A program made the translations under genes and the position numbers. A stretch of DNA of 64,000 nt, from the NCBI RefSeq assembly GCF_003334385.1, contig NZ_QOWN01000003.1, one strand, 5' to 3'. The stretch's first letter is position 1. Each line of letters begins with the position of its first letter. Below, in pieces: positions 54,899-57,456 of this stretch. Below the pieces are notes generated by a model. The model saw nothing but the letters and a program-made list of their open reading frames with translations. It was not told the DNA's origin and made no database searches. Source of the stretch: Escherichia coli. GTDB taxonomy: Bacteria; Pseudomonadota; Gammaproteobacteria; Enterobacterales; Enterobacteriaceae.

Positions 54899-56399
<1,501 letters not shown>

Positions 56400-56484
56400 T
56401 GTTGACTCCGAATGCTGGTTATCTATCCAGTGTAACAGGCGGGAAGCGATTAAAAAAGAGGCGGGTCGATGACAAAGGTTACAC

Positions 56485-56592
56485 CGTCTGACGTGCTACG
56501 CCTGTCAGGCCTATTCGACTCCTGCAATGTATTGAATTTGCATAGTTTTATAGGTCGAATAAGGCGTTCACGCCGCATCCGGCGTGAACAAA
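56485..56592. repeat. REP/BIME element between cho and nadE
   Basis: ...gacgtgctacgcctgtcaggcctattcgactcctgcaatgtattgaatttgcatagttttataggtcgaataaggcgttcacgccgcatccggcg...: inverted REP units flanking a conserved ctgcaat-attgaatttgca core also seen at about 63.66 kb. Confidence 0.6.
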
Positions 56593-56628
56593 TTACTCTT
56601 TTTCGCACAATCCAATATGTGCAAATTA

Positions 56629-57456
56629 TTACTTTTTCCAGAAATCATCGAAAACGGTAATTGGCGGACGGCGTTTATGTTCGGTTTTCAGATACCAGTT
56701 CTCTATTGTTCTGGCGACCTGTTGAGGTACGTTTTTCCCTTCCAGATAGTCGTCGATATTGTCATAGGTCACGCCGAGTGCCACTTCATCTGGCAGAGAA
56801 GGGCGATCATCTTCCAGATCGGCCGTTGGCGCTTTCTTATAAAGGTGTTCCGGGCAAGCTAATGCCGCCAGTAACTGTTTACCCTGACGTTTGTTGAGAC
56901 GATACAGCGGATTAATGTCCGTACCGCCGTCACCATATTTAGTGAAGAATCCGGTAATGGCTTCTGCTGCATGATCGGTGCCCACCACGACACCGCTGGT
57001 CATACCCGCAATGCTATATTGTGCTTTCATCCGCTCACGCGCTTTTTCATTGCCACGGACAAAATCGCTCAGTTCAATGCCTGCTTCCCGCAATGCCTGT
57101 TCGCTGGCCAATACCGCGCCCTTGATATTAACGGTTAATACGCGATCCGGTTGAATAAAGGCAATGGCATCCTGGCAATCTTGTTCGTCGGCCTGAACAC
57201 CATAGGGCAGGCGTACGGCAATAAATTGCAGTGATTCGTTGCCGGTTTCCAGGCGCAGCTCATTAATCGCCATCTGGCACAGCTTTCCGGCAAGCGTGGA
57301 GTCCTGACCGCCGCTGATCCCGAGCACCAGTGATTTAATGAACGGATAAGTTTGCAGGTAGCTTTTCAGAAAATCGACACTACGACGAATTTCCTCTTCA
57401 GCATTAATCTGCGGTTTTGCGCCCAGCGCCTTTATTATTTGTTGTTGCAATGTCAT
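56629..57456 (-). CDS. nadE: NH3-dependent NAD+ synthetase
   Basis: 275-aa product [31 protein letters not shown]... with PP-loop motif SGGQDS. Confidence 0.9.

Follow-up and report, generated by a model that had tools for sequence, protein, structure and literature searches.

Two intergenic repeats beside nadE and katE of Escherichia coli identified from their sequence as copies of BIME-1

Analyses of the nucleotide sequences of two intergenic repeats located at 56.5 kb (nadE-cho) and 63.6 kb (chbG-katE) of the window, by which we mean the whole 64-kb stretch of E. coli DNA that was analysed, indicated that both are ordinary copies of BIME-1, an enterobacterial mosaic element that is already known. 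BIME-1 is reportedly the RIB (reiterative IHF BIME) of Boccard & Prentki 1993, and is said to have been named RIP (repetitive IHF-binding palindromic element) by Oppenheim et al. 1993. We hold this identification, together with the general mechanism proposed below for the two repeats, with high confidence.

Location and anatomy of the repeats

The window is E. coli K-12-like and corresponds to the reverse complement of the MG1655 chromosome from approximately 1.81 to 1.87 Mb; a 1-kb query around the 56.5 kb repeat showed 100% identity to K-12 strains, and the MG1655 gene order (katE, chbG...nadE, cho...gdhA, ynjI) agrees with that of the window. MG1655 positions were obtained as 1879914 minus the window position, a conversion that reproduced the ends of nadE, cho, katE, chbG, gdhA and ynjI. 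The 56.5 kb repeat is located 3' of nadE and upstream of cho. The genes that border the repeats, including a third one at 36.1 kb, are as follows.

55512-56399, - strand: cho, start at 56399
56629-57456, - strand: nadE, stop codon at 56629-56631
stop at 63528, + strand: chbG, convergent with katE
end at 63786, - strand: katE, convergent with chbG
either side of the 36.1 kb repeat: convergent pair ynjI (+ strand) and gdhA (- strand)

The segments 56470-56592 and 63616-63738 form a direct repeat with 81% identity, the largest and longest in the window, and both carry the exact core CTGCAATRTATTGAATTTGCA (56522-56542 and 63668-63688). No further match to this core was found in the window when up to three mismatches were allowed, with 0.02 expected from shuffled sequences. 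Chance similarity of the two repeats was rejected on the basis of this expectation and of the multicopy occurrence of the core in E. coli genomes.

A consensus was derived by scanning TGCAATNNATTGAATTTGCA in one genome per species, which gave 97 copies among the matches listed. Among these matches, bona fide copies were present in E. coli, E. albertii, E. whittamii, two further Escherichia species and three Pseudocitrobacter species, and further lone TGCAATNNATTGAATTTGCA matches without REP arms were scattered in unrelated taxa. Alignment of the 97 copies revealed that conservation extends well beyond the REP arms, with the layout A, Y REP, L linker, Z1 REP and B.

A: consensus AGACTGATGACAAACGCAAAATT
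Y REP: consensus GCCTGATGCGCTACGCTTATCAGGCCTAC
L linker, 35 nt: consensus ATGATTTCTGCAATATATTGAATTTGCATGATTTT
Z1 REP: consensus GTAGGCCGGATAAGGCGTTCACGCCGCATCCGGC
B: consensus ATGAACAAAGCGCACTTTGTCAACAATCTGA

The names A and B for the outer motifs are reportedly those of Gilson et al. 1991. The A motif and the reverse complement of B agree at 12 of 14 positions, and the whole unit is thus an imperfect palindrome. Both window copies could be mapped segment by segment on this layout, so that the alignment to a REP/BIME consensus which the first-pass annotation had proposed as a check bore out its reading for these two loci. The full repeat unit is approximately 150 bp long, and each of the two loci carries one Y-L-Z1 unit and no tandem array. 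Positions identical to the consensus are given in brackets.

56463-56615, + strand (Y to Z1): nadE-cho BIME-1, complete but diverged
56463-56485: A (13/23)
56486-56514: Y REP (23/29)
56515-56549: L linker (28/35)
56550-56583: Z1 REP (31/34)
56584-56615: B (22/31)
63609-63760, + strand: chbG-katE BIME-1, well preserved, between convergent chbG and katE
63609-63631: A (21/23)
63632-63660: Y REP (28/29)
63661-63695: L linker (29/35)
63696-63729: Z1 REP (34/34)
63730-63760: B (25/31)

By definition, BIME-1 consists of a Y and a Z1 REP in inverted orientation whose GTAG/CTAC ends point toward the linker (PMC3333891). In the chbG-katE copy the arms face inward with CTAC...GTAG, and paralogues from other genomes align to approximately 63601-63775 of the query. 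The nadE-cho copy, which lies 14 nt past the nadE stop codon and 64 nt upstream of the cho start, has eroded tags, GTAG being changed to ATAG on the Z1 side and CTAC to CTAT on the Y side. A CTG-N10-CAG box is present on the cho side of this copy, its A end being 33 nt upstream of the box. The first-pass annotation had placed this repeat at 56485-56592, a span that covers Y, L and Z1 and misses the outer motifs of the real unit (56463-56615). It had also described REP arms with GCCTGATGCG and GCCTAC tails at all three loci; a REP pair is indeed found at each of them, while the left arm at 56.5 kb departs from that description and reads GTCTGACGTG...GGCCTAT. By the criterion of an imperfect palindrome of 30-40 nt with a conserved GTAG beside the stem foot, every arm at 36.1 kb and 63.6 kb is a REP, and so is the Z1 arm at 56.5 kb save that its tag reads ATAG. 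In spite of its erosion, the Y arm at 56.5 kb formed the same hairpin on the + strand (-11.8 vs -13.2 kcal/mol) and a weaker hairpin on the nadE-sense strand (-7.7 vs -11.5 kcal/mol). Folding of the element region gave values well below those of shuffled controls, with z = -5.6 for the nadE-sense RNA and z = -2.95 for the DNA, and recovered the REP hairpins.

The chbG-katE spacer is a composite filled with repeats. Besides the BIME-1 copy, the following features were identified.

63540-63570, + strand: solitary Z-type REP GCCAGATGCGGCGTGAACCTTGCATCCGGC, 12 nt past the chbG stop codon (match to the REP-arm pattern)
63586-63606: G+C-rich hairpin GGCGGCGTAACTGCGCCGC between the solitary REP and BIME-1, read from the sequence
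63763-63786: G+C-rich hairpin GAGGCGGCGCAATTGCGCCGCCTC directly past the katE stop and adjoining the B end of BIME-1, read from the sequence

The solitary REP is an inverted repeat of the neighbouring Z1 arm, with 81% complementarity to 63700-63730. The hairpin at 63586-63606, which was not called as a terminator by the terminator scan, is a further component of this composite spacer, and the hairpin at 63763-63786 lies within a sub-threshold match to naRNA4 (39.7 bits vs a gathering score of 59.5).

The repeat at 36.1 kb has a different constitution.

36098-36190: inverted REP pair with CTAC/GTAG ends inward, between convergent ynjI and gdhA
36098-36126: Z-like arm
36127-36160: linker, 34 nt
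36161-36190: Y arm

Its Z arm is 5 nt shorter than Z1. Alignment of its linker with the L consensus on either strand gave 17-19 identities out of 35, and since the score of the better strand was reached by 6.4% of shuffled sequences, which is not significant, an L-type core at this locus was rejected. A scan of the doublet with up to one mismatch found no match to the IHF consensus, and the linker is single-copy, with 3503 of 5426 E. coli genomes having it at one place each. The apparent match to the core at 36.1 kb (CTGCAAT...GAATTG) arises because the true core is itself partly palindromic (CAATnnATTG). From its sequence, this locus is a separate BIME-like REP doublet without the IHF core and is not a demonstrable BIME-1; with a Y arm, a short Z-like arm and a 34-nt linker that is not of the L type, it comes closest to the atypical BIMEs, a loosely defined class. 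The core that the first-pass annotation had considered common to three loci is therefore held, as an exact 21-nt sequence, by the 56.5 kb and 63.6 kb repeats only, and of its BIME-type reading of the 36.1 kb locus there remains a BIME-like REP pair whose core is not demonstrably shared.

The conserved centre of the linker

Since the 97-copy sample had required the core, it cannot gauge how well the core is conserved, and a second sample of linkers was therefore collected from metagenome contigs with a pattern consisting only of the Y tail and, at a distance of 30-40 nt, the Z1 head. This arm-only scan gave 121 matches and 66 distinct linkers, of which 62 were L-like. Alignment of the L-like linkers revealed that the block GCAATnTATTGAATT is conserved at 90% or more, that the TGCA found 3' of it is conserved at approximately 70-80%, and that the outer parts of the linker reach only 40-60%. 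The reverse complement of the block, which is the strand running from Z1 to Y, is ATTCAATAnATTG and has 12 of the 13 positions of the IHF consensus WATCAANNNNTTR. The corresponding sites in the window, at MG1655 positions of about 1823377-1823389 (nadE-cho) and 1816231-1816243 (katE-chbG), are given below; the 36.1 kb doublet, a predicted negative for IHF, is at 1843724-1843816 of MG1655.

56525-56537, - strand: IHF-consensus core in the nadE-cho L linker, reads ATTCAATACATTG (12/13 vs WATCAANNNNTTR)
63671-63683, - strand: IHF-consensus core in the chbG-katE L linker, reads ATTCAATATATTG (12/13 vs WATCAANNNNTTR)

Both matches are thus imperfect. In each element this is the sole site with at most one mismatch, the background in the window being 1.2 such sites per kb, and it falls on the block that is at least 90% conserved in the arm-only linkers. 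According to Nunvar et al. (PMC2817692), IHF interacts with the sequence between the REPs of BIME-1, and the same point appears in Delihas (PMC3184786), who cites Oppenheim et al. 1993. The conserved centre of L is accordingly a predicted IHF site, and the constraint on it probably acts on the DNA sequence. That the centre is held at 90% or more while the outer linker varies freely, and that an arm of the potential RNA hairpin described below decays without compensation, suggests that L is constrained as a protein-binding site on DNA, a structured RNA agreeing less well with this pattern. Part of the core conservation could reflect recent ancestry or another constraint, because three of the four N positions of the consensus are also conserved. 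The BIME-type element with a nucleoid-protein site that had been suggested for the 56.5 kb and 63.6 kb loci therefore corresponds to a Y and a Z1 REP around an L linker with a putative IHF site.

Distribution of the element and alternative readings

BLAST searches with the 48-nt core indicated that it occurs at a median of at least 12 and up to at least 30 places per E. coli genome, and at no fewer than 19-23 places in the 12 listed genomes that carry an identical copy. Both window copies are extragenic and sit past the 3' ends of genes. Among 55 copies whose gene context could be classified from crude ORF calls, 32 lay between co-directional, 19 between convergent and 4 between divergent genes, and 51 of the 55 follow at least one gene 3' end. 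By the same crude calls, the element occurs in both orientations with respect to the upstream gene (19 vs 13).

The nadE-cho copy was found in 5417 of 5426 complete E. coli genomes, and orthologues at the same site are present in E. whittamii and Escherichia sp. E1V33. As it is fixed in E. coli and orthologous in two other Escherichia species, this copy is old. Since the Y arm is intact in E. whittamii and in Escherichia sp. E1V33, the E. coli lineage has eroded Y, A and B and kept the core (21/21). Whether the 56.5 kb copy is active at present is uncertain, given the decay of its Y arm and the poor match of its A and B ends.

The chbG-katE arrangement, on the other hand, is polymorphic and was found in 1931 of 5426 E. 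coli genomes. In strain THO-008, the source of the only repeat-free allele found, an unrelated 46-nt hairpin spacer replaces the 257-nt composite spacer, and since the whole spacer is replaced, this allele gives no precise boundaries of the element. Strain UTME-6 is identical to the window over approximately 330 nt at chbG-katE save for the linker and the adjoining Y tail, and the variant linker that it carries has a 100% identical counterpart elsewhere in more than 2000 genomes. The sequence of this allele indicates a probable ectopic gene conversion between BIME-1 paralogues.

Three other explanations of the shared core have to be weighed against a BIME-1 with a DNA-binding site. The core may be a small-RNA gene or module, conserved to keep an RNA hairpin with a function in trans or in the binding of an RNA chaperone, and the Rfam searches bear directly on this. 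The model RF02751, ES036 (CssrF), matches both cores on the - strand with 55.5 bits at 63.6 kb and 42.9 bits at 56.5 kb, above the gathering score of 37.6.

63653-63695, - strand: Rfam ES036 match, 55.5 bits, covering the IHF-consensus core

Both nadE and katE have the - strand as their sense strand, so that transcription of their 3' regions would include the module and an ES036-type RNA at the two loci would be a 3' UTR or read-through product; CssrF was detected as a northern band of approximately 290 nt derived from the dacB/yhbZ spacer of Shigella flexneri (PMC3071730), and many REP elements are transcribed (PMC4550694). Alignment revealed, however, that the 43-nt model, matched end to end at both loci, is made up of the L linker together with the CTAC end that belongs to the Y REP, and so of a repeat whose copies number at least 12-30 per genome; RF02751 thus in effect models the BIME-1 linker, a dispersed DNA repeat. 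The variable orientation of the element relative to the upstream gene also speaks against an RNA gene, as does the outcome of the promoter and terminator scans, in which neither spacer gave a promoter-like or terminator-like site. This outcome and the Rfam classification of the core as an sRNA also count against the main explanation. The ES036 hairpin itself (TGCAA, a 10-nt loop and TTGCA) was evaluated on the 62 arm-only L-like linkers: 76.5% of the cells were paired as compared with 73.4% in shuffled alignments, with 6 of 500 shuffles equal to or above the observed value, and the covariation score was 0.186 vs 0.156, reached by 24 of 500 shuffles. Four of the five inner pairs had no two-sided change, which was seen at the closing pair only and in three sequences; inner pairs were unpaired in 3-17 of the 62 sequences, and the 3' arm of the hairpin decays uncompensated while the centre is held. 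Because the covariation support was weak the RNA-structure explanation was downgraded, and we consider the small-RNA reading very unlikely.

A purely selfish, non-autonomous mobile element of the REPIN or MITE type, whose core is kept for the transposition machinery or through youth and not for use by the host, would agree with the palindromic build of the unit (12/14 between A and the reverse complement of B), with the cleavage of REP, BIME and linker sites by TnpA-REP in vitro (PMC3333891), with the restricted occurrence of the chbG-katE arrangement and its repeat-free 46-nt counterpart, and with the linker of the UTME-6 allele, whose identity to a paralogue points to ectopic conversion. Against it stands the age of the nadE-cho copy, in which the core is intact at 21 of 21 positions while Y, A and B have decayed; moreover, the constant centre within a freely varying outer linker argues for selection on the centre rather than for youth. 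Mobility of this kind is in any case compatible with host use as an IHF site and does not exclude it, and as an exclusive explanation we regard it as extremely improbable.

The repeats might instead encode a family of small proteins (LSGL...GRIRRSRRIR peptides), as mechanical ORFs of 63 and 71 amino acids span the two elements and specify similar peptides.

56469-56660, + strand: mechanical ORF over the nadE-cho element
63606-63821, + strand: mechanical ORF over the chbG-katE element

The near-identical peptides quoted in the first-pass annotation are correct translations of these ORFs. Neither ORF is annotated in the CDS table of MG1655 (RefSeq NC_000913.3), however, and the PGAP rows listed had, besides nadE and cho, no feature under the core or the nadE-cho spacer, except for an oddly named CDS in strain cS100a. 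The ORF at 63.6 kb begins at TTG and extends antisense into katE, the 63-aa ORF gave no NCBIfam match, and the 66 distinct linkers include 13 of 34 nt, 36 of 35 nt and 14 of 36 nt, which shifts the reading frame. The similarity of the two peptides is fully explained as a by-product of the DNA repeat; the first-pass view of these ORFs as non-coding is upheld, and we give the coding explanation practically no weight.

Proposed mechanism, known systems and significance

The sequence analysis established the anatomy of the two repeats, the family to which they belong by sequence, their occurrence in many copies, where in L the conserved block lies, and their extragenic location past gene 3' ends. 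The action of BIME-1 at the two loci may be proposed as follows. Bound to L, the nucleoid protein IHF would introduce a sharp bend between the Y and Z1 REPs and so provide the 3' end of a transcription unit with a fixed architectural site. In RNA that contains the element, either as the 3' UTR of nadE or by read-through from chbG or katE, the REP stem-loops may block 3' exonucleases and attenuate transcription. The copies would spread and be homogenised as non-autonomous repeats by means of the REP-associated transposase and ectopic gene conversion. The literature credits REP stem-loops with the stabilisation of upstream mRNA and with transcription attenuation, names gyrase and Pol I among the proteins bound by REPs, and describes the cleavage and recombination of BIMEs by TnpA-REP. 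Both window copies may be occupied by IHF, with a possible effect on the expression of nadE, cho or katE, and we infer that the REP hairpins in the 3' regions of nadE and of katE/chbG could influence transcript ends. No transposase gene (RAYT) was found within the 64-kb window.

Descriptions of BIME-1/RIB/RIP elements and of the IHF site in L go back to 1991-1993, and the copies in the window are ordinary representatives. They share with the described elements the inverted Y and Z1 REPs, a linker of approximately 35 nt with an IHF-consensus site, GTAG ends that point inward, a single unit per locus, the position at 3' ends of transcription units and the conserved outer flanks; nothing essential differs, the 56.5 kb copy being an eroded member. 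BIME-2 and atypical BIMEs (naRNA4/REP325) have the REP building blocks, the alternating orientation and the extragenic position in common with the window copies. BIME-2, however, consists of tandem arrays of Y and Z2 REPs joined by short S linkers and has been linked to gyrase, whereas the window copies are single Y-L-Z1 units with a 35-nt L, and the naRNA4 model, which derives from BIME-2, stays below threshold here. The window copies also resemble REPINs, hairpin-forming REP doublets mobilised by RAYT/TnpA-REP, in having inverted REPs around a spacer within a larger palindrome and in being non-autonomous and multicopy; unlike REPINs, the nadE-cho copy is ancient and fixed, and BIME-1 is not known to be mobile. 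An internal IHF site is found both in BIME-1 and in the Correia element of Neisseria, a MITE. If ES036/CssrF is regarded as a small-RNA gene of a single locus, the window cores differ from it as parts of a dispersed DNA repeat with no promoter or terminator of their own detected.

It is conceivable, and in our estimation improbable, that the L core doubles as a shared 43-nt RNA module when BIME-1 is transcribed from Z1 to Y. Transcription in that direction corresponds to the nadE 3' UTR and to read-through from katE, and has the same orientation as ES036/CssrF. If this were true, at least 20 RNAs derived from 3' UTRs would be present per cell with a common hairpin that binds or titrates an RNA-binding nucleoid protein or chaperone, and an IHF site at the DNA level and a function at the RNA level would be superimposed on one sequence.

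As a discovery the identification of the two repeats as BIME-1 carries little weight; it is of practical use for annotation. Neither + strand ORF should be entered as a gene, caution is needed with matches to the Rfam ES036 'sRNA' here and at similar loci, which represent the BIME-1 linker, and the ynjI-gdhA repeat is a REP doublet and not an IHF-binding BIME-1. The conservation profile of the linkers collected by their arms only provides a clean sequence-level argument for constraint on L.

Rfam family RF02751 and the parts of BIME-1

Comparison of the window with Rfam revealed that family RF02751 (ES036/CssrF, labelled an 'sRNA') matched the centres of both BIME-1 copies:

63653-63695, minus strand, RF02751 match in the chbG-katE copy
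56507-56549, minus strand, RF02751 match in the nadE-cho copy

In effect, the 43 nt that RF02751 models consist of the L linker of BIME-1 and the CTAC terminus of the Y REP, and every BIME-1 copy is therefore expected to match this family. Covariation support for the RF02751 hairpin was small. The consensus sequences of the outer motifs A and B both contain TGACAA/TTGTCA (window 63617-63622 and 56470-56475), which matches the -35 hexamer at 5 of 6 positions and faces outward at each end of BIME-1; no complete promoter was called for these -35-like hexamers in A and B.

Tandem units and matches in non-enteric assemblies

While the BIME-1 elements of E. coli K-12 have been described as single copies, Escherichia sp. 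MOD1-EC7003 carries the Y-L-Z1 unit, with its IHF-type core, in tandem arrays of 4-7 or more units with periods of 107, 115 and 162 nt. These arrays, probable members of the 'atypical BIME' class, were found at five loci of this genome:

L074, 2719-3380
L076, 7909-8600
L077, 13968-14635
L082
L083

The E. coli core pattern was also matched in very short contigs of non-enteric assemblies:

L017, Desulfosporosinus sp. OT, 262-nt contig, full E. coli-type BIME-1 sequence
L019, Alkalicoccobacillus porphyridii, 720 nt, full E. coli-type BIME-1 sequence
L061, Methylobacterium frigidaeris, 261 nt, core pattern match

The Desulfosporosinus sequence was near-identical to the chbG-katE copy of K-12, and all three contigs are probably E. 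coli contamination of the respective assemblies.

The nadE-cho spacer

Analysis of the Y arm at 56486-56514 indicated that it has been eroded in E. coli by six substitutions. One compensated pair, along with G-T wobbles, maintains the same hairpin on the plus strand, and on the nadE-sense strand the substitutions weaken it. One further feature was located between the A end of BIME-1 and the start codon of cho, an SOS gene:

56415-56430, CTG-N10-CAG box (CTGGTTATCTATCCAG)

In its nucleotide sequence this box resembles a LexA operator, and the IHF-consensus core of the nadE-cho BIME-1 is situated about 95 bp upstream of it.

Two deviating forms of this locus were observed. At 1618-1828 of L081, the nadE-cho locus of Escherichia sp. 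MOD1-EC7003, cho-internal sequence is joined straight to the L core; a deletion, one of whose endpoints lies in the linker, has removed the A motif, the Y REP and the 5' portion of cho. In E. coli cS100a (NZ_CM176582.1, 2168536-2168999; matches H1/H28) a 201-nt query around the element was spread in two pieces over 464 nt, where PGAP places an 'E3 binding domain-containing protein', and this may reflect an insertion, a duplication or an assembly artefact.

The chbG-katE spacer among strains

The 257-nt chbG-katE spacer of the window is almost wholly filled by a solitary REP, two G+C-rich hairpins and BIME-1. The solitary REP, of Z type (63540-63570), begins 12 nt past the chbG stop codon, close enough for the reported effect of REP sequences on terminating ribosomes (PMC12306157). 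The 3' part of chbG (63230-63535) was itself unusually divergent: 80-90% identity was seen in 1114 genomes, and 2212 of the 5426 lacked a megablast match.

A short, repeat-free spacer is present in some strains; that of E. coli THO-008 (L244, 899-946) is 46 nt long and holds one unrelated hairpin, without REP or BIME. In the spacer of E. coli 96_1414B (L243, 879-1579) the Y REP of BIME-1 appears to be interrupted by an insertion sequence, since similarity to the window ends inside this REP, at about 63658, and the annotation places an IS621 transposase gene (IS110 family) 192 nt beyond that point.

Alignment of the E. coli UTME-6 spacer (L245) with window 63490-63820 revealed about 330 nt that were identical except for some 14 differences, all within L or the neighbouring tail of the Y REP. 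Because the differences are so confined, and because the variant linker is 100% identical to a BIME-1 copy that more than 2000 genomes carry elsewhere on the chromosome, the sequence of this allele indicates short-tract ectopic gene conversion between BIME-1 paralogues.
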